From Alphaproteobacteria bacterium (lineage in GTDB: Bacteria; Pseudomonadota; Alphaproteobacteria; UBA7887), in assembly GCA_965216755.1 (NCBI GenBank), contig CBDCGL010000011.1, positions 3,616,001-3,680,000 of the forward strand: DNA of 64,000 nucleotides. The letters run 5' to 3'. Under the pieces are notes generated by a model. It did not search any database and was not told the origin of the DNA. It saw only the letters and a program-made list of their open reading frames with translations. The position numbers were made by a program, and so were the translations under genes. This document shows, piece by piece, positions 28,393 to 41,230 of this stretch. Position 1 is the stretch's first letter, and each line of letters starts with the position of its first letter.

Positions 28393-28570
28393 GCGCTGAT
28401 CATTCGGCGGTCGCCGACCGAACGTGTTCCCCAATTTGAGCTGTATTTCCGCGGTTTCTGCGTAAGCCATTGGCCCTTAACGCTTTGGTAAGCATTGGCG
28501 GTTGTTAATACATTCACCGTCAAGAAATAGGCGGGCAATTATTCAACCAAGAATGTGGTCAGGTTCAACA

Positions 28571-29449
28571 ATGGCTGTTGCAGAAAATCCCGCCACGCAA
28601 AGTGCAAATCGGCGGTACATCAATCGGTCCATGAAGACGGCGCTGCTGACGCGTGAACGCGAGTTCGAGCTGGCGCGTCGGTGGCGCGATTCGCAGGATG
28701 AAGAGGCATTGCACGAATTGGTCAATGCCTACTCTCGGCTGGTCATCAAGATCGCGGCGCGGTTCCGCAACTACGGGCTGCCCATGAGTGACCTTGTGCA
28801 AGAAGGCAACATCGGCATCTTGCAGGCGGCGGCGCGTTTCGAGCCGGAACGCGAGATCCGCTTTTCGACCTACGCCTCTTGGTGGATTCGCTCGGCGATG
28901 CAGGACTATGTGCTGCGCAACTGGTCGATTGTCCGTACCGGAACGACCGCCGCTCAAAAAGCGTTGTTCTTTAATCTACGCCGCATGCGCGCCAAATATG
29001 CGCGCGATTTGGACGGCTGGCTGGATGAAAAAAGCACACGAAAAATCGCCGACGAGCTACGCGTCAACACCTCGGATGTTGGCGACATGGAAATGCGCTT
29101 GGCCGCCAATGACCAGTCGCTGAATGCCTCCGTCGCCGATTCTAGCGAGGACGAGTGGCAGGATTTCTTGCAAGACGACCAAGCTGGCCCGGAAGAGGTG
29201 GTCGTTGAAATGCGCGACCACGAGACCCGCTCGCGTTGGCTTGCTCAGGCGCTAGAGGAGCTGTCGCCACGTGAACGGACGATCATCAGCGAACGGCGCT
29301 TGCGCGAAAACGCGGTGACTCTGGAGGAACTTGGCAAGACCTTGGGAATCAGCAAGGAGCGCGTCCGCCAGATCGAACATAAGGCTTTGCAAAAACTGCG
29401 CACGTCGGTCACCAAGCGCGAGAATCCCGAACTCGATCAGGCGGCGTAG
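28571..29449 (+). CDS. rpoH: RNA polymerase sigma-32 family factor (RpoH2-like)
   Basis: DLVQEGNIG, RFSTYASWW, RpoH box AQKALFFNLRR, ISKERVRQIE. Start placed at ATG 28571. Confidence 0.9.
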   Translation: MAVAENPATQSANRRYINRSMKTALLTREREFELARRWRDSQDEEALHELVNAYSRLVIKIAARFRNYGLPMSDLVQEGNIGILQAAARFEPEREIRFSTYASWWIRSAMQDYVLRNWSIVRTGTTAAQKALFFNLRRMRAKYARDLDGWLDEKSTRKIADELRVNTSDVGDMEMRLAANDQSLNASVADSSEDEWQDFLQDDQAGPEEVVVEMRDHETRSRWLAQALEELSPRERTIISERRLRENAVTLEELGKTLGISKERVRQIEHKALQKLRTSVTKRENPELDQAA

Positions 29450-29494: not shown

Positions 29495-30301
29495 TCAGAA
29501 CAACAGCTCGATTTGTTCGGGGTGGGTCGCATCGATGACCGGGCCATTGAATTCCTCGATCCAGCCCCGCGCCCGCAAATCACGGCCGACCAGCTCCTCG
29601 AACACATAGCCCTCGGCCTCAAATAGGCGGCGGTCGCGCGGGGCGATGGATATGGTGAAGTCACTTCGCCAATCTTCGCCAAAGTTCAAATAGGCGCGGC
29701 CGCGCACCACCGCCGCCGAAACCACTGTGCCCTCGACCAACTGGAAGCTGCCAATATCATCGTCGACCTCGACCACGTCCCGGATCGCGTAAAAGGGGTG
29801 GCGCCAAATTCCCGCCGCCGCCTCGCGGGCGGCACGCTCGCGGTCAAGCAAATCGCTGACGCAAGATCGATTGTCGGCAAAAGTGTAGACGCGCGCCATC
29901 CCGGCGCTGACCATCTCACCCTGCACCCACAGCGAATCATCCAAATATAGATGAGCCAGCAATCGACCATGGCGGTCGACCTCGCGGCCGCCATGCGCCA
30001 GCTGCACGTTACGTCCCAGGACCAATTTTTCCAACGCCTGCTGGGCCTCGTCGGCGAGCGGCCAAGCCACGAAGTTGCGGCGTCCAAGTGGCAACTTCGG
30101 CGCTTGGGTGCCGACCAGGCGGACTTCTCGGCCGCTCTCAAGGACGACCGTGTCACCGTCAATCACTTCAACAACCTGTTGGCCCGGACCGACACGCTCA
30201 AGATCGCAGGCATCGGCCGGTTTGCCCCAGATCATGAGCGCCAGCGCCGGCAGCAATCCAGCAAGCAAACGACCACGGCCATGTTTTTGCCATGATGTCA
30301 T
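29495..30301 (-). CDS. Thermonuclease (SNase) family protein
   Basis: VIDGDT, VRLVGTQAP, DRHGRLLA, GIW; N-terminal hydrophobic segment. Start placed at MTSWQ. Confidence 0.88.
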   Translation of the reverse strand: MTSWQKHGRGRLLAGLLPALALMIWGKPADACDLERVGPGQQVVEVIDGDTVVLESGREVRLVGTQAPKLPLGRRNFVAWPLADEAQQALEKLVLGRNVQLAHGGREVDRHGRLLAHLYLDDSLWVQGEMVSAGMARVYTFADNRSCVSDLLDRERAAREAAAGIWRHPFYAIRDVVEVDDDIGSFQLVEGTVVSAAVVRGRAYLNFGEDWRSDFTISIAPRDRRLFEAEGYVFEELVGRDLRARGWIEEFNGPVIDATHPEQIELLF

Positions 30302-30341
30302 CGCGTCGCTAGTATCCCCCTTCTTCACTTCACCATCGTCG

Positions 30342-31301
30342 ATGTCACAGATCAACCTTTACCCGACCATCGAGCCCTTTGCCAGCGGCCGGCTGCCGCT
30401 TGGTTCGCCGCATGTCATGTATTGGGAACAATCGGGCCATCCGGACGGCTGCCCGGTTGTCTTCTTGCATGGCGGGCCGGGCGCCGGGGCGTCACCGTCC
30501 AACCGGCGTTATTTCGATCCGACCCACTATCGCATCATCATCTATGACCAACGCGGCGCCGGCCGCTCGGCCCCTTTGGGCAGCTTGGTTGACAACACGA
30601 CGCAACATTTAATCGACGACCTTGAGCAGCTGCGGCGGTTCCTGAAAATAGAGTCATGGATCGTGTTTGGCGGTTCCTGGGGCAGCACACTTGCGTTGGC
30701 ATACGCCGAGGCGCATCCAGAGCGGTGTCAAGCGCTTGTATTACGGGGCATTTTTTTGTGCCAGCCGGAAGAGATCGAATGGTTTCTGCACGGCATGGGG
30801 CGGTTCTTTCCAGAGGCCTGGACCGAGTTTGTGGGCCATCTGCGGGCCGACGAACGCGACGACATTCTCGCCAACTATTATCGGCGCCTCATCGATTCCG
30901 ATCCGGCCGTACACGTGCCGGCAGCGCTCGCCTGGAGCCGCTATGAAGGGCGTTGCTCGACCTTGTTGCCGAGCCTCGAGACCGAACAAGCCTTTGGCAA
31001 GGAACGAATGGCCTTGGGGCTCGCCCGAATCGAAGCCCATTACTTTGTCAATCGGCTGTTCTTGCCAAGTGGCGCTTTGCTGACGGCGATCAAACGGATC
31101 CACGATATTCCCGGCTATATCGTACAGGGCCGCTACGACATGGTGTGTCCGCCCCGCACCGCCGACATGCTGCATCGCGCTTGGCCAAGGTCGCGTTTGA
31201 AAATGGTTCCCGAGGCCGGGCATTCGTCACTGGAGCCGGGCATTAGTCGCGCTTTGGTCGCCGTTATGGACACATTGCGCGACCAAGGCTCGGGCGGGTA
31301 A
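30342..31301 (+). CDS. pip: Prolyl aminopeptidase
   Basis: LYPTIEPF, FLHGGPG, FGGSWGSTL, QGRYDMVCP, AGHS. Start placed at MSQINLYP. Confidence 0.93.
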   Translation: MSQINLYPTIEPFASGRLPLGSPHVMYWEQSGHPDGCPVVFLHGGPGAGASPSNRRYFDPTHYRIIIYDQRGAGRSAPLGSLVDNTTQHLIDDLEQLRRFLKIESWIVFGGSWGSTLALAYAEAHPERCQALVLRGIFLCQPEEIEWFLHGMGRFFPEAWTEFVGHLRADERDDILANYYRRLIDSDPAVHVPAALAWSRYEGRCSTLLPSLETEQAFGKERMALGLARIEAHYFVNRLFLPSGALLTAIKRIHDIPGYIVQGRYDMVCPPRTADMLHRAWPRSRLKMVPEAGHSSLEPGISRALVAVMDTLRDQGSGG

Positions 31302-31368
31302 ACAGGTCAACACTGCGCCAGTTTGGGCGCGCATTCGCAAGAACAAGCGATATCGAAAGATCTGGGGG

Positions 31369-31887
31369 GTGACGATGCGAGCGATGCGGGTGGCCGTGTT
31401 ATTGGCTGTATGGTGTGCGACATTGATAGCAGGCGCGCGCGGCGTGCGCGCCGCCGACGAACCGGATTTCCTGGTACTTGGGGTCGGCGCCTACGATGTT
31501 CTTGATGACTTCATCGCGACAGAGTTCGACGCGCAGTTTCGTTTCAATGAACGGCTTTGGTTTATTCGACCGATGGTCGGCGCGATGGCCACCACCGACA
31601 GCGCTTTTTTCGCTTATGCCGGGATATTTGCCGACATCAACCTTGGTCAGAGACTGGTCGTGACACCAAGTTTTGGCGCCGGCATCTACCACGAAGGCGA
31701 CGGCAAGGATTTGGGCGGCAATCTGCAATTCCGCTCGGCGGTAGAATTCGCCTATCGATTCGATGATCGGGCGCGATTGGGGGTTGAACTCGGCCATTTG
31801 TCGAACGGCAGTATTTTGGATACCAATCCGGGCGAGGAATTTATCATCGTCAACTATTCACTGCCGACCGATGTGTTCACACGATAA
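31369..31887 (+). CDS. Acyloxyacyl hydrolase / PagL-like outer-membrane beta-barrel
   Basis: Signal peptide; GKDLGGNLQFRS and catalytic-type HLSNG..NPGEE. Confidence 0.8.
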   Translation: MTMRAMRVAVLLAVWCATLIAGARGVRAADEPDFLVLGVGAYDVLDDFIATEFDAQFRFNERLWFIRPMVGAMATTDSAFFAYAGIFADINLGQRLVVTPSFGAGIYHEGDGKDLGGNLQFRSAVEFAYRFDDRARLGVELGHLSNGSILDTNPGEEFIIVNYSLPTDVFTR

Positions 31888-32480
31888 CCGGCGCGCAACC
31901 GTCGATATCGCAGGAAAATGATCGTCGCGAAGATCGGCGCGCCCACCGCCGCCAAGATCAAGAACGGCTGCAACCAGCCAAGCCACGCGACTGGCGCAAC
32001 GATGAACAATGTGTCGTCCGGGTCAAAACCACCACGGCCGGGAATGGCCTGCGTGCCCGGAGGTAGCATCGCGTCGATTTGGGCGGCCAGCCAAAAGGTC
32101 GCGGTGACCGCCAGCCCCGCGAGTACACCCATGGCCGGCGCCCACCAACCGAGCCCGCTGTTGACCAGGCCGGCGCCGATACCGACAAAAAGCAGTGCCG
32201 TGACGACATTGTCACAAATCAGATCATAGACGTGACCCCAGGCGGATGATTGGCTGGTCATGCGCGCCAACACGCCGTCGGCACGGTCCAAAAGCATCGA
32301 TAACACATAGACGATTGCGGCCACCCAATTCCACGTCGCCGCGCCCATCGCGAACAGACCCGCCGCCGCCAGCCCCGTCACCAGGCGGGCGGTGGTCAAG
32401 TGATTCGGCGTGACGGCGGTCCCGGCCAATGGCCGCACCGCCGCCGTAACCACTCGGTGCGCCCAGGTATTATGACTCAT
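31854..32480 (-). CDS. CDP-alcohol phosphatidyltransferase family protein
   Basis: TPNHLT and the full signature DxxDGxxAR-x8-GxxxDxxxD (DRADGVLARMTSQSSAWGHVYDLICD). Confidence 0.9.
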   Translation of the reverse strand: MSHNTWAHRVVTAAVRPLAGTAVTPNHLTTARLVTGLAAAGLFAMGAATWNWVAAIVYVLSMLLDRADGVLARMTSQSSAWGHVYDLICDNVVTALLFVGIGAGLVNSGLGWWAPAMGVLAGLAVTATFWLAAQIDAMLPPGTQAIPGRGGFDPDDTLFIVAPVAWLGWLQPFLILAAVGAPIFATIIFLRYRRLRAGYRVNTSVGSE

Positions 32481-33246
32481 CGCCGTTGCCCGCCGTCGCC
32501 GGTGATTGGGGAAGGGGCTGAAGTTGCGGCCAAACACAGCGTTCGGCCATGTCGATGTCGTCGGGAAAATCGATCTCGGTCCAGGGCAGTCCGGTAATGT
32601 CCTCGAAGCCGAAAGCCCCCGGCGGTTCCGCGATCAACAAGTCGCGCAGCGCCTCATCATAGTAGTCGGTGGTTTGGCCGGCATCGATATAGCGGCGAGT
32701 GGCGTCGGCCAGGCGTCTGGCCATGTGCCCGGACAGGCGGAAAAAGCCGACCGATTCACCGTGCCAATCGTGAGCATGCTCTGGTTGTTTGCGAAAGTCG
32801 ACCAATTGGCCGTTCTTCACGCAAAGTTTCGCCGGCTCGTCACCGGGTTCGATATTACGGTCAAGCAAGAAGCAGTTGGCGTGGCGCGAACCGAGCAGTC
32901 GCGCGATCATGCGCTGATCGTAAAGGACATCGCCGTCCATCAGCAACACGTCGTCGCCGGCCGACAAATGGGCGCGCAGCGCCCATTGGGTCACGATGCT
33001 GCCCGCGCGATAGTCCGGATTGTGGACCGTCTCAATCGGAATGCCGGCAACGGACTGGGCCAGTTCGTGCGTGATATCGGCGGCACGATAACCGGTTGCG
33101 ACGACAATTCTATCGACTCCGCAACTCTGCAATATGCGAACATGTCTTTCCAACAGTGTGTGGCCGCCAAAGCGCAGCAGAATCTTCGGCCCGTCAACGC
33201 CGATCAACCGGTCGCCGACACCGGCGGCAAACAGACACGCGCGCAT
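32470..33246 (-). CDS. Phosphocholine/phosphonate cytidylyltransferase family protein (LicC/PntC-like)
   Basis: LFAAGVGDRL..PKILL, LMDGDVLY, WTEIDFPDD. Start placed at MRACLF. Confidence 0.85.
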   Translation of the reverse strand: MRACLFAAGVGDRLIGVDGPKILLRFGGHTLLERHVRILQSCGVDRIVVATGYRAADITHELAQSVAGIPIETVHNPDYRAGSIVTQWALRAHLSAGDDVLLMDGDVLYDQRMIARLLGSRHANCFLLDRNIEPGDEPAKLCVKNGQLVDFRKQPEHAHDWHGESVGFFRLSGHMARRLADATRRYIDAGQTTDYYDEALRDLLIAEPPGAFGFEDITGLPWTEIDFPDDIDMAERCVWPQLQPLPQSPATAGNGDES

Positions 33247-34232
33247 CAAGATACGCCGCGCGACCGCGCGCGCCACCAGCGGTGCCCCTCGATCGCCTGC
33301 CAGGCAATCAGGCCGGGGACGCCGCCCAGGATTTCGCGCATCCGTCTGACGATCGCAATGGCGAGGCCGACATCGGCGCCGAGACCCAACACGCCAGCCA
33401 CGATCATATAGCCGCCTTCCTGAAGGCCGAGCCCGCCGGGTACGGCGAACGCCGCGCTGCGCACCGCTTGCACCAAGCCCTGAATGATCAAGGCTTCGAC
33501 CATGCCCGCCGGGACCCCCATGAATGCCAATGCCAGATACACTTCGCCGGCGCCGAGCGCCCAACTCACCAGATGATAGACCGAAGCGACCGCCATCTCG
33601 CGGCGTCTGCCATAGGTCGCGCGTACGGCGCGGTCCAACCGGCGCGCACCGCCAACCAAGTTTGCCAGACTGTCGCCGCCCAAGCGCTCGATAAATCCGG
33701 CAAGAAACCCAAACAAGCCGCGTTGTTGAACGGCGGCGAAGCCGACAACGGCGGCAAAGAACAATGCAGTAACCGCAAGCACAGCGCCGGTTAACTCGCG
33801 ACCGCCATCATGGTGCGCAACCAAAAGGCCCAAGGCCACCAAGGTAAACAGGGCCTGCATCAGCACGATCAACGTCATATCGACGACCAAACTGGCCGCG
33901 GCCAGCGGCCCCGGCATGCCGCGCACGATCAAAAGTCGCGCCACCACCACATCGCCGCCGATCTGTGCGACCGGCAGCAGTTGGTTTACCGACTGGCGAA
34001 TCCAACGCATTTTCCACGCCACCAACAGCGACGGGCGCGCCCGGGTCGCCGCCACGCGACGCCAGCCAAAGGCGTCGGCCAATAGCGGAATGGCATCGAA
34101 GGCGACGATGATCAAGATCCCCCAGCCAACCGTGACTAAGGCTTCGGCCAAGGTATCGGCGCCACGCCACACAACCAAACCCGTAAACAGCGCCAAGCCG
34201 GCCAAACCAAACAGGACCATGAGCCGTTTCAT
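33246..34232 (-). CDS. HpnL-like / lysylphosphatidylglycerol-synthase TM (flippase-like) membrane protein
   Basis: VNQLLPVAQIGGD and FAVPGGLGLQEGG; multi-pass hydrophobic. Confidence 0.8.
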   Translation of the reverse strand: MKRLMVLFGLAGLALFTGLVVWRGADTLAEALVTVGWGILIIVAFDAIPLLADAFGWRRVAATRARPSLLVAWKMRWIRQSVNQLLPVAQIGGDVVVARLLIVRGMPGPLAAASLVVDMTLIVLMQALFTLVALGLLVAHHDGGRELTGAVLAVTALFFAAVVGFAAVQQRGLFGFLAGFIERLGGDSLANLVGGARRLDRAVRATYGRRREMAVASVYHLVSWALGAGEVYLALAFMGVPAGMVEALIIQGLVQAVRSAAFAVPGGLGLQEGGYMIVAGVLGLGADVGLAIAIVRRMREILGGVPGLIAWQAIEGHRWWRARSRGVS

Positions 34233-36862
34233 GGCTCTTGGGTCCTCGCCGTGGCGATCGTCATCAGGGCCGGCAACAATAGGATCGTGGCCGCGAATGT
34301 TACGCCAACGCCAATGATCAGCAGCATACCCATACTTGCCGTGCCGACATGTTCGGACACGGCCAAGGCCCCGAAACCAGCCATGGTGGTCGCCGCGCTC
34401 AACAAGGCGGCGCGCGCCGTCGATGTCGCCAGGACGGGTTGTGCCGGCGCGGCGCGCTGGCGCCGCATCAGGTGAATGGCGCTGTCGACACCAATGCCCA
34501 GCAGCAGGGGCAGTACGATGACATTGGCGAAGTTGAAGGTCATCCCGGCAAGCGTCATGATCGCGGCCGTCAACAGCGCGCCCAGCAACAGCGGTGCCAT
34601 CACCAAGGCGACGTCGATCGGACGCCGGGTTACGATCAGCAACAATGCGGCGATCGAAACCAATGCGGCCAGCAGAGCCTGAATAAAAGCCGTTATCACG
34701 GTATCGCCTGCTTCCAACACCAAAACCGGTTGATCGGTGATATCTTCAGCAACCGTTCGCACGGCATCGACAAAGCGCACCAAGGCGTCATTGTTGGCGA
34801 CGATGTCCTCGGCCGGGAAGACCTGAACCCGTTGGCCGCCATCGCGCGCCTGGAATTGCGCCCGCAGGTCCTCTGGCAGCGCCGATTCGGTAAACGGCGC
34901 GGCGGTAAGCGATGCGTCCAACAGGGCGATCTGATAGGGCAATGCACCGAGCCAGGCGTCGCGAATAGCCGCCAGTGAGATCGACCTGTCGTCACCGGCG
35001 CGCAGGGCGCGATCCAATGCGGTGCGCAGGTCGGATACGCCGGCGGGCGCGTCAGGGCGCGCTGTGGCAACTTGGTCAAGTGCGCGCAGCAGGGCCTTCA
35101 AGGCGAGCTGTTCTTCATCCGGTGTGCTCGCGGTGCCGGGCGCCAAAGCAAACGGATCTGGTTCAGACACAAACGCAATGTCTTGGATGATTTCGTATTT
35201 CGTATCTTGATCTGCGGGCACGAAGTCGTCCAATGTGATGGCTTCGTCAACTTCGGGCAGCTGTTCGAAGGCGGTCTTGAGAGACGCCGCCTCGGCGCGG
35301 TCGGCGGCGACAACGGACGCGGTCCACGGCTTGGTCTGGGTGTCGTCCAGCAAAGTGCGCAGCGCGGTGACCGATTCACGTGCCGGATTTTGTAGGTTGA
35401 GCGGGTTCGGGTCGAAGCCGACCTGTGGCGCCACCGCCAAGCCGACCAGTGCCAGCACGGCGGCACCAATCGCGATCGGGCGCGCGTTGCGGTGCGGCCA
35501 GTGCGCGAATCGGTTTGCGCGTTGTGACCGCGGGCGCACTGAGCCGGGTGGCAACACCAGCGTCAACAGCGCCGGCAAAACCGTCAGGTTGGCGAAGAGA
35601 CTGACGAACATGCCCGTGCCGGCGATAACGCCCAACTCCGACACACCGTCATAGTCGGTCAGCAAAAAGGCATAAAACCCGACCGCGGTCGACACGGCGC
35701 ACAAGGTCAGGGCACCGCCGACGGCGCGTCCGGCTTTGGCAACGGCCGCGGTTGGATCGAAGCCGGCGGCGACCATCTCGCGGAAACGCAATCCATAGTG
35801 GATGCTGGCATCGATCCCAAGACTGACGAACAGAACCGCAAACGCGATCGAGATCAGGTTCAAATGTCCGACCAGGACCGCGGCAAACCATGCCGTCCAC
35901 ACCAGGCCGATGGCCAACGTCACCAATGCGGCGATCACCAAGCGGATAGAGCGTAAGCCAACTAACAAAATCACCGCGACCAAGAACAACGCCACCAGTC
36001 CGGCGTGCTGCGCGCCCAATTGGGCGGATTCAAGCTCGTCATGGCCAAGCGCAACCGTGCCTGTCAATGACACCGTGACTCCGTTGGTCGGCGTTAGGGC
36101 CGCCGCGGCCGCGATATCGCGAATCGACTGTAGAACCGCCGCGCCCGGCATCAGCTGCGCGTAGTCGAGTGCGGCCGGCTGGACAACGATCACGGCGCGT
36201 AGGTCGGCCGCGGTCGGCGCGGTCCCGTGCATGATCTCAACCCAAGACAACTGCGCCGGGACGCCGTCCAACAGGTTCTCGATCACACGCCCCATGCGTG
36301 TGAACAGCAACGCCAAATCTTCCAGCGGAGCCGCTTTGGTCAAGGCATCGTCGATGCCCAACCGCAAGACCGCGGAAAGACCGCGCAGGCTCATGTCCTG
36401 GCGCAGGCGCTGCAACAGCGGCTGTGCCTCGCCCAAATCGTCGAGCAGGTCGAGAAGTTCCGCCTCGCTGAGATAGAACAAACCATTGTTGGCAAAAAAC
36501 GCGCCGGCGCCCGGGGCGTAGACATAGGGAAAATGTTCCGGCTGGGCGTTAAGCGCGGTGGTGAGTGTGTCGCGCGCGGCGCGGACGCGATCGGGCGTGT
36601 CTGCTTCCAACAGAACGGTGACCGTGTCGTTCAGGCGCGGGAACTGCGCCTTGTAGGCTTTGTAAGTTCTCAGAAACGGTGTTTCGTCGGAGATCAAGTC
36701 CAAGGTGTCGGTATCGATTGTCATGGTCGCGACCGTATAGGGAACGGTCGCGGCGGCGCTGACAATGGCCAAGATCACGACCCACACTGCGTATCGCTGA
36801 ACAGTACCGAGCCACGTCGCCAAGACACGATCGAGCGGGGCTGTCGGTTGGCGATCAGACAA
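34229..36862 (-). CDS. MMPL/RND family lipid transporter (HpnN-like)
   Basis: Two RND TM repeats with GIDASIH and GIGVDSAIH, LNLISIAFAVLF, FDPNPLNLQNP; two large periplasmic loops. Confidence 0.88.
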   Translation of the reverse strand: MSDRQPTAPLDRVLATWLGTVQRYAVWVVILAIVSAAATVPYTVATMTIDTDTLDLISDETPFLRTYKAYKAQFPRLNDTVTVLLEADTPDRVRAARDTLTTALNAQPEHFPYVYAPGAGAFFANNGLFYLSEAELLDLLDDLGEAQPLLQRLRQDMSLRGLSAVLRLGIDDALTKAAPLEDLALLFTRMGRVIENLLDGVPAQLSWVEIMHGTAPTAADLRAVIVVQPAALDYAQLMPGAAVLQSIRDIAAAAALTPTNGVTVSLTGTVALGHDELESAQLGAQHAGLVALFLVAVILLVGLRSIRLVIAALVTLAIGLVWTAWFAAVLVGHLNLISIAFAVLFVSLGIDASIHYGLRFREMVAAGFDPTAAVAKAGRAVGGALTLCAVSTAVGFYAFLLTDYDGVSELGVIAGTGMFVSLFANLTVLPALLTLVLPPGSVRPRSQRANRFAHWPHRNARPIAIGAAVLALVGLAVAPQVGFDPNPLNLQNPARESVTALRTLLDDTQTKPWTASVVAADRAEAASLKTAFEQLPEVDEAITLDDFVPADQDTKYEIIQDIAFVSEPDPFALAPGTASTPDEEQLALKALLRALDQVATARPDAPAGVSDLRTALDRALRAGDDRSISLAAIRDAWLGALPYQIALLDASLTAAPFTESALPEDLRAQFQARDGGQRVQVFPAEDIVANNDALVRFVDAVRTVAEDITDQPVLVLEAGDTVITAFIQALLAALVSIAALLLIVTRRPIDVALVMAPLLLGALLTAAIMTLAGMTFNFANVIVLPLLLGIGVDSAIHLMRRQRAAPAQPVLATSTARAALLSAATTMAGFGALAVSEHVGTASMGMLLIIGVGVTFAATILLLPALMTIATARTQEP

Positions 36863-36877
36863 GGGACGCGTGAGACC

Positions 36878-38017
36878 TTAGACGGTGGCCAAATGGCGGC
36901 GCAATCGTTGCGCGACCGCTGCTGGCGTGACCGTTGGGCGCGGCAGACCAGCCGGGACGCCGGGCCGGGTGGGCAGGTGCACAAAGTGCGGCCCGGGCCC
37001 CTGTTCGCCCAATCTATTCGCCAATACATGCGGCGTCGTGACACGTTGGGTGGTGGCATAGCCGCACGCGGCTGCGACCGCGCAAAAATCGACGGTGTGC
37101 GAAACGGTCGCTTGACCGCCGGTCGATTCATGCATGCCGTTGTCGAATAGAATATGCACCAGATTGTTGGGGCGCGCCGCGCCGATCGTGGCCAGTGCAC
37201 CAAGGCGCATCAAGGCGGCACCATCGCCATCCAAGGCAATCACGCGCACGTCTGGCCGCGCCAGCGCGAGCCCCAGCGCAAGGCTGGATACGCAGCCCAT
37301 CGAACCGACCATGTAGAGCTGGTTTGGCCGGTCTTCCAACCCATAAAGGGCGCGGCCGGTAAACCCCGTCGTGGCGATGATCACGTCGCGCGCGCCGCTC
37401 GTCGCCTGCACCGCCGCCAGCAGTTCGTGGCGCGTCGCGTCGGCGGGCGTCGCGACCGTCGGTATAGCGGTGCGCGGCGCCGGTCGGTTGGTCTCGTTCT
37501 GGGCTAGGGGATAGGGCGCGACACTCCCCTTCGACATCAAAAGGGCATACGGGCGACCGGTCTTGCGGCGCTGCGCGTCGGCGCGGTCAAAAACGCCGGC
37601 GACCGCTTCGGATGTGCGCGGAAACGGCTCCCACGGCACCTGCAACAGTTCCAATTGGCGACCGGTTATGGGGCCCATCAGCCCATGTTGCGGTTCATCC
37701 CCGGCGCCGCCCGGCTGGCCCCGCCAAGTGACGATCAGCAGCAACGGGATGTTGAAGATGTGGGTCAACGACGACAATGGGCTGACCGCGTTGCCTAGCC
37801 CGGAGTTTTGCATCATCACCACACTGCGCCGACCACCGAGCTCGGCACCCGCCGCAATGGCGACCGCATCGCCTTCATTCGTCGCACCGACATAGTCCAA
37901 TCCGTCGGCCCCAATCACGTAGTTGATGAACGGGGTCAGATAGGAACAAGGCACGCCTGTGAACAGATCGTAGCCGCGCGCTTTGGCGGCGCCTATAAAC
38001 GCCTCGGCGTCGATCAC
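36878..38017 (-). CDS. aepY: Phosphonopyruvate decarboxylase
   Basis: FTGVPCS, NEGDA, MQNSGLGN, DEPQH, GSMGC and TPP motif DGDGAALMRLG...N. GTG start at VIDAEAF. Confidence 0.93.
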   Translation of the reverse strand: MIDAEAFIGAAKARGYDLFTGVPCSYLTPFINYVIGADGLDYVGATNEGDAVAIAAGAELGGRRSVVMMQNSGLGNAVSPLSSLTHIFNIPLLLIVTWRGQPGGAGDEPQHGLMGPITGRQLELLQVPWEPFPRTSEAVAGVFDRADAQRRKTGRPYALLMSKGSVAPYPLAQNETNRPAPRTAIPTVATPADATRHELLAAVQATSGARDVIIATTGFTGRALYGLEDRPNQLYMVGSMGCVSSLALGLALARPDVRVIALDGDGAALMRLGALATIGAARPNNLVHILFDNGMHESTGGQATVSHTVDFCAVAAACGYATTQRVTTPHVLANRLGEQGPGPHFVHLPTRPGVPAGLPRPTVTPAAVAQRLRRHLATV

Positions 38018-38021
38018 AATG

Positions 38022-39683
38022 TCACACGAAATTGCCGGCGACCAACAGGTCGTCGACATCATCGATGTCGAGCCAATGCCCGGTTGTGTAGACGACCCGC
38101 ACCTTCTGGCCCGCGCCAACCAAGCGATTGAACAACGCATCGATGCCGGCGTTTTCGAACGCCACGCGATCGTCGTCGCGCCAGCCCGTGAGGGTTTCAA
38201 AGGCCACCTGCGCGCCGGCGGCCGTGAAGCGCGCCACCCCCATCCACTCGCCGTGGATCTTGCCGGATAGTGCCGGTCCCATCTCGGCCAGCCAGACCGG
38301 GGCATAGTAGGCCTCGCGGCTATTGGGCAGTGAACATTTAACATAGTCGGCCGCCCGATTGGCGCCGCGATTGCGGCTGGTTTTCCAGTTGGTATCGACG
38401 GCAATGGTGATGTCGGCGTCGCTTTCCGTCAGCATGTCCAGCACATAACGACGAAACAGCACGTCGCCATAGGATACGAACACGTCCCTGGTCGCAGGTT
38501 GCAGTGCCAGCGCCAGGGACACGATCTCTTGCGTGGTGTCGTAAGCGAGATTGTCGACATAATCGAGGGCGGGCAGGTCGATCTTGTGCTTGGCATAGCC
38601 GCGCACCACGGTGATGTCTTTGACATCGGCTTTGCGGTAAACCTCGGCTATGTGCGCCAAGATCGGCTTGCCGGCCACATCCAGCATTGCTTTCGGCTTG
38701 TGCTCGGTCAGGGCGCCCAATTCGCGGCCGCGCGAGGCAGCCAAAATGATCGCCGTCGCGGCGCCCTGGCTGGGTAGATAAGTTTCCTCGGCCCGCTTCA
38801 GTTCATCGGCGCCTTGCAAGCGAAACACTTCCGCCACCGGCGCGATCGCGTGTTCGACGCCAAGCAAATTTTCGTCGTCATGAATGGTCGCCGCGGTGCG
38901 CTGCATGGCGGTGATTGCCGCGCGCAGCAAATGATTGGCCCAAATCACCATCGAAACGCCGTGATCGCGGAACGCGTCGGTGGGGGTGGTGTAGTATTTG
39001 GTCGGTACCAACACCACCGGGCAGCGCCGATCCCAGGCGCGCAAGAAGCTGAACACTTCATCAGCGTTGGATCCGGCACTGTGAATCAAGATCGCGTCGG
39101 CACCAGCCGCATGATAGGCGCGCGCCCGGCGCAAGGCCTCCTCGAGCCCCCAACCGGCAATGAATGCTTCGACCCGTGCGACAATGGAAAAATCCGGATC
39201 GTGCTGGGCCGCCTTGCCGGCCCGAATCTTGCCGCAAAACTCATCGATGTCAGCCAGCGGCTGTGTGGCGCCGGCAATGAAGCTGTTGGTCTTCGGGAAC
39301 TGTTTGTCCTCGATGCAGACCGCCGCCACGCCACGGCTTTCCAACTTTTGCACGAGCCGGCGCATATTGTTGAAATTGCCATATCCAGTGTCGCCGTCGA
39401 GCATGATCGGCACGGTGCACGCGTCGTTCATGAATTCGACCACTTCAAGCACCTGGGTCCAGCTGGCCTCATTGTTGTCGCGCACACCAAGCGCCGCCGC
39501 CATTGACAAGCCACTGGCCCAAACCGCGCCGAACCCGGCCTCCTCGGCGATTTTCGCGCTCAGGCCGTTATGTGCCTCGCACACAAAACTAAGTTCCGGG
39601 GTGTTCAAGGCGGCGCGGAAACGGGCAGCGCGCGACAGTTGCGCGCGTGGCGCGGTCTCGATCGGTACGGCAGGTGCCTGCAT
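38022..39683 (-). CDS. aepX: Phosphoenolpyruvate mutase fused to a C-terminal NTP-transferase domain
   Basis: PepM signature EDKxxxxxNS ([10 protein letters not shown]) and DGDTGYG; C-terminal ILAASRG...KPKAML, YGDVLF, WLDIDD. Confidence 0.95.
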
Positions 39684-39782
39684 TATGGTGCTATACAGAT
39701 CGCTTCAATGGTCCACAATGTCCGTTTGCGTCCGCGGCGGACGCATTCCAAACCGAACGGCGGCACCATAGCACGTGTGACG

Positions 39783-40115
39783 ATGGCAAAGGCACCCTCA
39801 ACCGGTTCTGATCGTGTCGCCAGCGACAAGGTGGTGTGTCGGACGCCGACACCCAACAAACGGCCGACTCGGATTCCACGTTGGAAATTCGACGCGGTGG
39901 CCGACGCTATTCGCACCGTAGTCCCGCGGGCGGGAGATGGCGTGGTGTTCAAAGACCTTCCGGGCTTGGTGGCCGGTGTGCTTGGCGACGATGTCAAACA
40001 CCAGCTGGGATCTGTGGGCTGGCATGTGGCGACGGTCAAGTTGGAGCTGGAAGTACGCGGCGAGTTGGTTCGCGTGCCCCGCGCCAAACCGCAGCGCCTG
40101 CGGCGCCGTTCGTGA
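39783..40115 (+). CDS. Conserved small protein (DUF6958-like, possible winged-helix)
   Basis: CRTPTP, IPRWKF, GSVGWHVATVKLELEVRG; family recognised from memory. Confidence 0.65.
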   Translation: MAKAPSTGSDRVASDKVVCRTPTPNKRPTRIPRWKFDAVADAIRTVVPRAGDGVVFKDLPGLVAGVLGDDVKHQLGSVGWHVATVKLELEVRGELVRVPRAKPQRLRRRS

Positions 40116-40255
40116 CCCCGATTGCGCGTTTGTGTTCCGTACCTGGTGTGCGGACGGTGCATAGCGTCGATGTGTCGCCGGATGCGTGTGCGATTGCCGA
40201 GAATATGAAATGATCGCCGGCGGCGTGGCGCTTAGCGGAGAGGGACTTAGGCAAA

Positions 40256-41230
40256 ATGAAAGCGATCCTGGCGCATGAATTCGGCGGACCCGAGGTTCTG
40301 AAGTACGAACAGACGGCGGACCCGGTCGCCGGCCCTGGCGACGTCGTGATCGACGTGAAAGCCGCCGGAATTAATCCGGCAGACACCTACATGCGCGGTG
40401 GCGCCTATGCGATTGTGCCGCCCTTGCCGTACACGCCGGGCGGCGATGCGGCGGGTGTGATCGCCGCCGTCGGTGCGGGGGTCAGTGATTTCGCAGTTGG
40501 CGACCATGTCTTCGTTGGCACGGCGATGGGCTTTAACATGACCGGCTGCTACGCGGAAAAAGTCGTGCGGCCGGCAACCGATGTGCTGCCGTTGCCCAAA
40601 GGCGTCAGCTTCGCCCAGGCCGCCGCCCTCGGCGTGCCGTATGCCACCGCGCACTACGCCCTGTTCGCGCGCGGCGGCGCCGAAACGGGCGAAACCGTAT
40701 TCGTCCATGGTGCGTCGGGCGCCGTTGGCACGGCCGCGATCCAGCTTGCCAAACGCGCCGGTCTGACCGCAATGGGTTCCGCCGGTACAGAACGCGGATT
40801 GACTTTGGTGCGCGAACAGGGCGCGGCGCACGCCGTCGATCACAGCAAAGAGGGATATATCGAACAGCTCCGCGGGCTAACCGGCGGTACCGGGCCGGCG
40901 CTCATTCTGGAAATGTTGGCCAACGTCAATCTCGCCGCCGATCTTGATCTGGTGGCGAAATATGGTCGCATCGTCGTGATTGGCAATCGCGGCGAAATCA
41001 CCATCAACGCGCGCGTGGCCATGATGAAGGAATTGGACGTGCGCGGCATCGCCCTGTTCAATGGCGCGGCGGCCCAGATGCGCGAGATCATGACAGATCT
41101 GGTCGCGGGGCTTGAAGATGGGACGCTCAACCCGATTGTCGGTCGCGAGATGCCGCTGGCTGAAGCGGCGGCGGGCCATGTCGCCGTGTTGGAGCCTGGC
41201 GCTTTCGGCAAGATCGTGCTTGTGCTTTGA
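40256..41230 (+). CDS. NADPH:quinone oxidoreductase (zeta-crystallin/MDR family)
   Basis: FGGPEVL, GINPAD, HGASGAVG, GKIVL. Confidence 0.92.
   Translation: MKAILAHEFGGPEVLKYEQTADPVAGPGDVVIDVKAAGINPADTYMRGGAYAIVPPLPYTPGGDAAGVIAAVGAGVSDFAVGDHVFVGTAMGFNMTGCYAEKVVRPATDVLPLPKGVSFAQAAALGVPYATAHYALFARGGAETGETVFVHGASGAVGTAAIQLAKRAGLTAMGSAGTERGLTLVREQGAAHAVDHSKEGYIEQLRGLTGGTGPALILEMLANVNLAADLDLVAKYGRIVVIGNRGEITINARVAMMKELDVRGIALFNGAAAQMREIMTDLVAGLEDGTLNPIVGREMPLAEAAAGHVAVLEPGAFGKIVLVL

Follow-up and report, generated by a model that had tools for sequence, protein, structure and literature searches.

The stretch of DNA analysed here, subsequently called the window, comprises 64,000 nt of the forward strand of an Alphaproteobacteria bacterium of the lineage UBA7887 (assembly GCA_965216755.1, contig CBDCGL010000011.1; G000:C11:3616001-3680000, where G000 is the genome of the window), and all window positions count from its first letter. 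Between positions 31854 and 39683 it carries six long open reading frames (ORFs), all on the minus strand and joined by gaps or overlaps of at most 15 nt. This operon combines genes for phosphonate synthesis with a predicted headgroup transferase and with two membrane proteins of hopanoid-associated families; its conserved linkage to hopanoid genes is the subject of this work. Listed from the upstream end, the features are:

38022-39683, minus strand: phosphoenolpyruvate (PEP) mutase, PepM (residues ~22-293), fused to a LicC/PntC-type nucleotidyltransferase domain (~310-553); TIGR02320 and PF12804
36878-38017, minus strand: phosphonopyruvate decarboxylase (Ppd), thiamine-diphosphate dependent; TIGR03297, TPP_enzyme_N and TPP_enzyme_C
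34229-36862, minus strand: HpnN-family resistance-nodulation-division (RND) transporter of the HAE3/MMPL type; TIGR03480, Pfam MMPL
33246-34232, minus strand: HpnL-family membrane protein with an MprF-type flippase-like domain; TIGR03476, PF03706
32470-33246, minus strand: stand-alone PntC-like cytidylyltransferase, here named PntC2; NTP_transf_3, PF12804
31854-32480, minus strand: cytidine diphosphate (CDP)-alcohol phosphotransferase with about six hydrophobic segments; CDP-OH_P_transf, PF01066

Reading of the junctions places a 4-nt gap between the PepM and Ppd genes, the latter starting at GTG 38017 and not at the start of a longer overlapping ORF, and a 15-nt gap between Ppd and HpnN. The HpnN and HpnL genes overlap by 4 nt (ATGA) and those of HpnL and PntC2 by 1 nt (TGATG), and PntC2 overlaps the phosphotransferase gene by 11 nt if the latter starts at ATG 32480 (its longest ORF begins at GTG 32537). 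A scan of positions 31200-40400 revealed no promoter-like site; terminator-like sites were weak and intragenic. An earlier note on this DNA had described six linked minus-strand genes in this order with spacings of 15 nt or less, which the ORFs and junctions bear out, and the gene identities that it gave agree with the Pfam and NCBIfam matches, the solved relatives and the motifs reported below. The arrangement is not due to chance, as the same order recurs at protein identities of 46-72% in other genera of the family (complete and identical in the four loci L025, L028, L030 and L031).

Enzymes of phosphonate synthesis and predicted headgroup transfer

PepM matches TIGR02320 with 381.9 bits (NCBIfam cut-off 319.55), its translation contains the Ppm-specific motif EDKxxxxxNS as defined by Rice et al. 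2019 in a passage of PMC6697681, and a search of the whole genome finds no other PepM over the cut-off. The C-terminal part of the fusion carries NTP_transf_3 (PF12804, Pfam) at residues 311-430; the closest relative of this domain in the PDB is LicC (1JYK, E 7.8e-8), not a PntC. A PntC-type domain fused to Ppm is described as the commonest Ppm architecture in the passages of PMC6697681 on this point. Ppd scores 420.5 bits against TIGR03297 (cut-off 312.5), and both PF02776 and PF02775 are present.

PntC2 matches PF12804 with E 2e-14 (Pfam), and among solved structures it is closest to the Tde1415 PntC domain (6PD1, E 1e-11), with an alignment over residues 2-242 and thus nearly over the full length. 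According to passages of PMC6697681, Tde1415 is a PntC, a cytidylyltransferase specific for aminoethylphosphonate (AEP), and carries an AEP transaminase in the same polypeptide. Tde1415 and Ari1348 have the PF12804 fold as PntC2 does, but they stem from clusters with a supposed role in glycan decoration. By its fold, its PntC relative and its clustering with Ppm, PntC2 is a predicted phosphonate cytidylyltransferase.

The CDP-alcohol phosphotransferase reaches 55.3 bits against PF01066 (cut-off 22, E 1.3e-14), and its closest PDB relative is AF2299 (4O6M, E 9e-7). A regular expression search located the full CDP-alcohol phosphotransferase motif D-x2-D-G-x2-A-R-x8-G-x3-D-x3-D at residues 84-109 of the 227-aa ORF. 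The protein is likely the headgroup-to-lipid transferase. The top NCBIfam match for both PntC2 (E 4.9e-15) and the phosphotransferase (E 7e-8) is NF041135 (IPCT/DIPPS). IPCT/DIPPS likewise joins a cytidylyltransferase to a CDP-alcohol phosphotransferase whose CDP-alcohol donor is soluble; however, the window genes fall far below the NF041135 cut-off of 580, are separate and not fused, and stand in a phosphonate rather than an inositol context.

The earlier note had proposed a logic of making, activating, attaching, flipping and exporting a phosphonate headgroup. This logic holds, but the note skipped a transaminase step, and phosphonoacetaldehyde is not a PntC substrate. The operon itself is devoid of an AEP transaminase (AEPT); a PhnW/AepZ-type enzyme is encoded about 2 Mb away at G000:C11:1595502-1596746 (locus L023:7502-8746; TIGR02326 483.5 bits, cut-off 400.8). 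This unlinked transaminase probably supplies the missing biosynthetic step of the operon, and AEPT directly follows Ppd in the two related loci that were annotated for it. A catabolic role of PhnW was considered and set aside: the genome yielded no PhnX phosphonatase over the cut-off, and the seven annotated ORFs around the transaminase include no phosphonate gene, the search having covered neither PhnY/PhnA nor C-P lyase. An iron-containing alcohol dehydrogenase gene 2.2 kb downstream of the transaminase shows a weak match to the phosphonate-associated TIGR03405 (120.9 bits, cut-off 423.7).

Hopanoid transporters and hopanoid genes of the genome

The MMPL protein scores 885.5 bits against TIGR03480 (cut-off 751.85) and matches the structure of Burkholderia multivorans HpnN (5KHN) from end to end (residues 22-868, E 8.8e-125), and HpnL scores 306.2 bits against TIGR03476 (cut-off 195.65; PF03706 E 7.6e-25). 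The earlier note had assigned both to hopanoid-associated transporter families; the families were right, but the claim was understated, as these are the only HpnN-family gene over the cut-off and the only HpnL-family match in the genome. The HpnN clade of the whole family is divergent, and members in genus g8 lie below even the TIGR03480 cut-off.

The MMPL phylogeny that the note had suggested was calculated as a quick maximum likelihood tree of 47 sequences (23 PepM-linked, 21 from PepM-negative genomes, two second copies and one Desulfobacterales outgroup), excluding high-scoring segment pairs shorter than 600 aa and truncated contigs. In this tree the window protein groups with those of its family (support 100), nested among ordinary alphaproteobacterial HpnNs. 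PepM-linked and unlinked proteins interleave with seven label changes. The MMPL protein of the operon is the HpnN orthologue of the lineage. A separate HpnN paralogue of a phosphonate type had been considered as well and is ruled out by the interleaving and the single-copy status. A search with a single HpnN protein also yielded a relative of 38% identity in a Desulfobacterales metagenome-assembled genome.

A genome search for shc and hpn genes, also proposed in the note, found one shc at C11:2239127, flanked by hpnC, hpnD, hpnE, dxs, hpnG, hpnH and ispH. Judging from these genes around shc, the organism should make C35 hopanoids. Neither HpnI nor HpnJ was found over the cut-off in the genome, so HpnL cannot serve the glucosamine/cyclitol-ether branch here. 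HpnN and HpnL have orthologues in the canonical hpn clusters of both Rhodopseudomonas palustris and Burkholderia multivorans; G000 possesses the hpnCDE-shc-hpnG-hpnH part of such clusters, whereas HpnI and HpnJ are absent.

Occurrence within the order and neighbouring genes

Our sample of the order consists of 23 genomes of one family. The same 9 of these carry shc and the fusion-type PepM cluster, the cluster being found in none of the 14 shc-negative genomes; since a single gain or loss could yield this pattern, the match is weak on its own. In addition to the four loci with the complete order, the operon is split or interrupted by contig ends in five genomes (in G001 it lies on two contigs). 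The HpnN gene was seen in 8 of the 9 cluster genomes, and the contig of the ninth stops inside ppd. PhnW was detected in 7 of these 9 genomes and in none of the other 14. One shc-negative genome (G009) contains an unrelated PepM of 35% identity.

Several genes border the operon in the window. A PagL-family lipid A 3-O-deacylase (31369-31887, plus strand; PF09411 E 5.4e-18) is convergent with the phosphotransferase gene, whose 3' end it overlaps by 34 nt; four more genomes of the family retain this neighbour, and G039, from another family, has a copy of 32% identity close to its cluster. Divergent from pepM is a DUF6958 ORF (39570-40115, plus strand; PF22278 E 5.2e-20), the true start of which is probably further downstream, as the longest ORF extends into the start of pepM. 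Further away are a gene for an RpoH sigma-32 factor of alphaproteobacterial type (28502-29449, plus strand; NF005693 385.9 bits, cut-off 315) and a prolyl aminopeptidase gene (30075-31301) whose synteny with the cluster is conserved in relatives.

The phosphonate module and hopanoid clusters across Alphaproteobacteria

The alphaproteobacterial sample comprises 401 genomes including G000; the tables were cross-tabulated by hand, and the unpublished genome G261 was counted only in the HpnN and shc tallies. PepM over the cut-off occurs in 40 genomes, HpnN (E <= 1e-80) in 126 and shc (E <= 1e-60) in 124. We found shc in 37 of the 40 PepM-positive compared with 87 of the 361 PepM-negative genomes (Fisher p 8.5e-18, without a correction for kinship), and the 37 genomes with both genes span 22 families. 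The three PepM-positive genomes without shc (G113, G251 and G409) contain unfused PepM frames of 439, 310 and 435 aa, respectively.

The survey of pepM neighbourhoods for MMPL genes, another check named in the note, showed that in 19 of the 40 genomes, belonging to 13 families, PepM and HpnN share a contig and are at most 10 kb apart, PepM mostly being part of the hpn cluster; a further genome (G372) has this arrangement with a truncated PepM. In the remaining 21 PepM genomes the two genes lie on different contigs (11 genomes) or far apart (G038 and G373), or no HpnN is seen (8 genomes). Family f49 includes three genomes (G070, G243 and G371) in which the PepM-PntC fusion occurs together with shc, although none of them has an HpnN match at E <= 1e-80; the phosphonate module thus tracks shc more closely than HpnN.

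We fetched 20 loci, i.e. 16 linked loci outside the family and those of G273, G372, G038 and G373, and mapped them by tblastn with the window proteins. A super-cluster order recurs, in which hpn(C)DE-shc-hpnG-hpnH is followed by one to three CDP-alcohol phosphotransferase paralogues together with HpnL and PntC2, and then by HpnN, with PepM-PntC and Ppd divergent beyond HpnN; in many relatives the phosphonate genes are flanked by hpnH and hpnN. Orthologues of PntC2 (42-66% identical) adjoin PepM and/or HpnN in all 17 linked loci outside the family. The phosphotransferase is present in 15 and HpnL in 7 of these 17, and shc lies within the same stretch of at most 20 kb in 15. The gaps of L036, L044, L048 and L065 with its extension L076 (G188) were annotated and contain IspH, MlaA, MlaC, an epimerase resembling HpnA and, following Ppd, an AEPT of the PhnW type (481 bits); two genomes (relatives G284 and G188) also have a PhyH-type dioxygenase. 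Many clusters (L035-L042, L045-L047 and L051) have two to three phosphotransferase paralogues, 33-51% identical to the single one of the window, which suggests several headgroups or acceptors.

As a control we inspected 20 genomes with HpnN and shc on one contig and with PepM absent or below the cut-off, chosen from the tables and not at random; in three of them (G085, G096 and G047) PepM-family matches below the cut-off lie elsewhere in the genome. In these hpn clusters HpnN is near shc in 20 of 20 cases and HpnL is present in 7, whereas PntC2 occurs in only 2 (G334 and G188) and the phosphotransferase in only 1 (G188). PntC2 and the phosphotransferase thus go with the phosphonate genes, and HpnN and HpnL are general genes of hopanoid clusters. 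In two loci without a PepM over the cut-off, L067 (G085) and L072 (G201), PhnW-like aminotransferases (54% and 44% identical to that of G000) adjoin HpnN.

Occurrence beyond the Alphaproteobacteria

An alignment of 24 PntC2 orthologues (A1) was used for searches of metagenomes, of a phylum-wide sample and of a second proteobacterial class. The metagenome collection contains at least 563 PntC2 relatives; the best 80 loci were kept, 28 of which are 10 kb or longer. Among these 28 long loci of the best 80, PepM/Ppd was found in 19, the phosphotransferase in 20 and HpnL in 14, at least one hpn gene in 16, a core hpn gene in 13, and both PepM/Ppd and hpn genes in 11.

In the phylum-wide sample of 351 genomes two strong PntC2 orthologues were detected (G670 and G481), both beside PepM-PntC and both in shc-positive genomes. 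The hpnH gene of G670 is 6 kb from the module. The non-alphaproteobacterial G481 shows the row phosphotransferase, gap, HpnL-like protein, PntC2, PepM-PntC, Ppd and AEPT. For the class of G481 we examined 166 genomes, one per family, with a PntC2 bar of 280 bits: shc is present in 12 of the 13 genomes above this bar and in 15 of the 153 others (Fisher p 3.4e-10, not corrected for kinship). The exception without shc (G868) is 62% complete, and leaving out two unpublished genomes (G778 and G878) gives 10 of 11. PntC2 lies 7-8 kb from shc in G755 and G836, and in G852 a partial match under the bar (162 bits) is 4 kb away from shc. G543, which has PepM-PntC fusions and no shc, was considered as a counter-example and rejected, since its clusters contain neither the phosphotransferase nor HpnL and are thus of a different kind.

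Comparison with catalogued clusters

The earlier note knew of no characterised pathway with this composition. This stands as far as the product is concerned, but the cluster type has already been catalogued: passages of Li et al. 2022 (PMC8942020; Yu et al. 2013 is cited there) describe Group 1 or 'Burkholderiales_CDP-OH' predicted phosphonolipid clusters with a seven-gene core of Ppm-PntC, Ppd, AEPT, an alpha-ketoglutarate oxygenase, a second PntC and two phospholipid genes. The window operon holds five of these seven (Ppm-PntC, Ppd, the second PntC and the two phospholipid genes). In contrast to that core, its AEPT is unlinked, no oxygenase is found in the operon, where alone it was looked for, and hpnN is inserted between ppd and hpnL. 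The gene row of G481 matches the core as described in the same passages.

Hopanoids go unmentioned in the passages of PMC8942020 on the Group 1 family, and 'a possible phosphonoterpene' is raised there only for Nitrosococcus, which has squalene synthase and cyclase genes near ppm. An antiSMASH 'phosphonate-terpene' call appears in a passage of Wang et al. 2020 (PMC7285500), and a 2021 survey of Acetobacteraceae (PMC8776678) suggests, in its passage on Roseomonas, 'an undiscovered terpene-phosphonate' from a linkage of shc to PEP mutase. Our search of the open-access literature, with subscription journals and supplements outside its range, found antiSMASH-style speculation of this kind only and no characterised phosphonate-bearing hopanoid.

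Proposed pathway and alternative explanations

On balance we consider it somewhat probable that the operon serves to put the AEP group of a cytidine monophosphate (CMP)-AEP donor on a bacteriohopanepolyol, with HpnL as the flippase and HpnN as the exporter of the product. In this pathway PepM would convert PEP to phosphonopyruvate, Ppd would decarboxylate the latter to phosphonoacetaldehyde, and the unlinked PhnW/AepZ-type transaminase would form AEP. A PntC-type cytidylyltransferase, which may be PntC2, the PepM-fused domain or both, would then produce CMP-AEP. The CDP-alcohol phosphotransferase would transfer the aminoethylphosphonyl group to a hydroxyl of the C35 bacteriohopanepolyol supplied by the separate hpnCDE-shc-hpnG-hpnH cluster, HpnL would move the zwitterionic product across the inner membrane, and HpnN would carry it towards the outer membrane.

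Diacylglycerol, ceramide or a hopanoid polyol had been named in the note as possible acceptors; from gene context we infer that the last would be used. A universal acceptor such as diacylglycerol would leave unexplained why the module is restricted to shc-positive genomes, and tailoring enzymes inside hpn clusters, of which HpnG, H, I, J, K, O and P are examples, otherwise act on hopanoids. The side chain is tailored by HpnI/J/K (glucosamine and cyclitol ether), HpnO (amine) and HpnP/R (methylation), and we know of no phosphonate or CDP-alcohol chemistry in this context. In Tetrahymena and in Bdellovibrio/Bacteriovorax, AEP phosphonolipids are glycero- and sphingo-phosphonolipids with diacylglycerol or ceramide as acceptors. 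There a lipid alcohol carries AEP or 1-hydroxy-AEP in phosphonate ester linkage, as proposed here, but these lipids are not known to have a tie to hopanoid genes, HpnN or HpnL. Both groups of phosphonolipids are mentioned in passages of PMC8942020.

Several observations weigh against a hopanoid acceptor and against parts of the pathway. The shc gene of G000 lies 1.4 Mb from the operon, and the module is also far from the hpn genes in G038 and G373. The two p-values overstate the case, as related genomes are not independent. HpnL and HpnN occur in hpn clusters without phosphonate genes, so their presence signals a hopanoid and not a phosphonate, and the HpnN of the operon reaches only 650.9 bits against the stricter equivalog NF052374 (cut-off 1100). 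Of the 28 long metagenome loci, 4 (from the best 80) have neither PepM/Ppd nor hpn genes nearby. In G188 the segment G188:C3:125000-152000 contains HpnN, PntC2, PhyH, HpnL, the phosphotransferase and MlaC, and no PepM was found in this 98%-complete genome; either AEP is scavenged there or a phosphate-ester headgroup is used. Two genomes with the cluster, G019 (98% complete) and G012, yielded no PhnW, which counts mildly against the assignment of the transaminase. CDP-alcohol phosphotransferases classically act on diacylglycerol, and to our knowledge decades of bacteriohopanepolyol analyses have brought no report of a phosphonate conjugate. Finally, the relevant passages of PMC8942020 file such clusters as phosphonolipid clusters.

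The main competing explanation, possible but in our estimate rather unlikely, is an ordinary glycerophosphonolipid: CMP-AEP would be used on diacylglycerol and yield a phosphonate analogue of phosphatidylethanolamine, the genes would travel together as both lipids are built into the same outer membrane, and HpnL and HpnN may move both lipids or only hopanoids. The fold and motif of the phosphotransferase, which are of the Kennedy type, fit this explanation, as do the cataloguing of the module as 'Group 1 phosphonolipid' in PMC8942020, the G481 core without hpn genes on its 20-kb stretch, and the lipid-trafficking genes MlaA and MlaC within clusters. However, diacylglycerol is universal, yet the fusion-type module occurs together with shc in 37 of 37 alphaproteobacterial genomes and in 12 of 13 genomes of the second class, the exception being the 62%-complete one, and in many families it is embedded between hpnH and hpnN. 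Moreover, no phosphonolipid has yet been characterised from these prevalent clusters according to the passages of PMC8942020 on Group 1.

We give little credence to a non-lipid or lipid A/lipopolysaccharide target, i.e. a phosphonoglycan or an AEP-modified lipid A, with the hopanoid genes as neighbours through shared envelope regulation. PntC enzymes have been characterised in phosphonoglycan-type clusters, as passages of PMC6697681 report, and the PagL-family lipid A deacylase is a conserved convergent neighbour of the operon. On the other hand, the only transferase of the operon is an integral-membrane CDP-alcohol phosphotransferase, and the PepM-PntC/Ppd/AEPT cluster of the shc-less G543, which contains neither this transferase nor HpnL, shows that such a cluster is separable from that of the window. 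Phosphonoglycan clusters use LicD-type or glycosyl transferases. That two unrelated modules for phosphonate synthesis and hopanoid transport became adjacent and co-transcribed by chance in this lineage is hardly credible: the operon is far from shc in G000 and HpnN and HpnL occur elsewhere without phosphonate genes, but the linkage recurs in 13 alphaproteobacterial families, in the second class (G755, G836 and G852, with PntC2 4-8 kb from shc) and on metagenome contigs, and overlaps of 4 nt and 1 nt run across the module boundary.

Possible implications for hopanoid biology

The predicted conserved unit consists of PepM-PntC, Ppd, AEPT, PntC2, the CDP-alcohol phosphotransferase, an HpnL-like protein and, in some cases, an oxygenase. 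Its fusion-type module is found in ~9% of the sampled alphaproteobacterial genomes (37/401), and the PntC2 marker in 13 of the 166 families of the second class. The present finding joins the hpn clusters with the Group 1 phosphonolipid clusters and makes the prediction sharper and more directly testable than those in print. We regard as evenly balanced the wider proposition that bacteriohopanepolyols esterified with AEP (or 1-hydroxy-AEP) are a real, undescribed class of outer-membrane lipids made by this unit, that the Group 1 clusters are hopanoid-tailoring clusters, and that HpnL flips hopanoids bearing a headgroup.

If the acceptor is a hopanoid, this would explain the product of the most abundant predicted 'phosphonolipid' clusters and would give HpnL a function. 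A headgroup with a C-P bond would join the hopanoid repertoire, and a zwitterionic, phosphatase-resistant hopanoid would have consequences for the biology of the outer membrane. The interpretation of hopanoid biomarkers would be affected as well, since standard work-ups may destroy or miss the conjugate, and such lipids would bear on the sources of environmental phosphonates.

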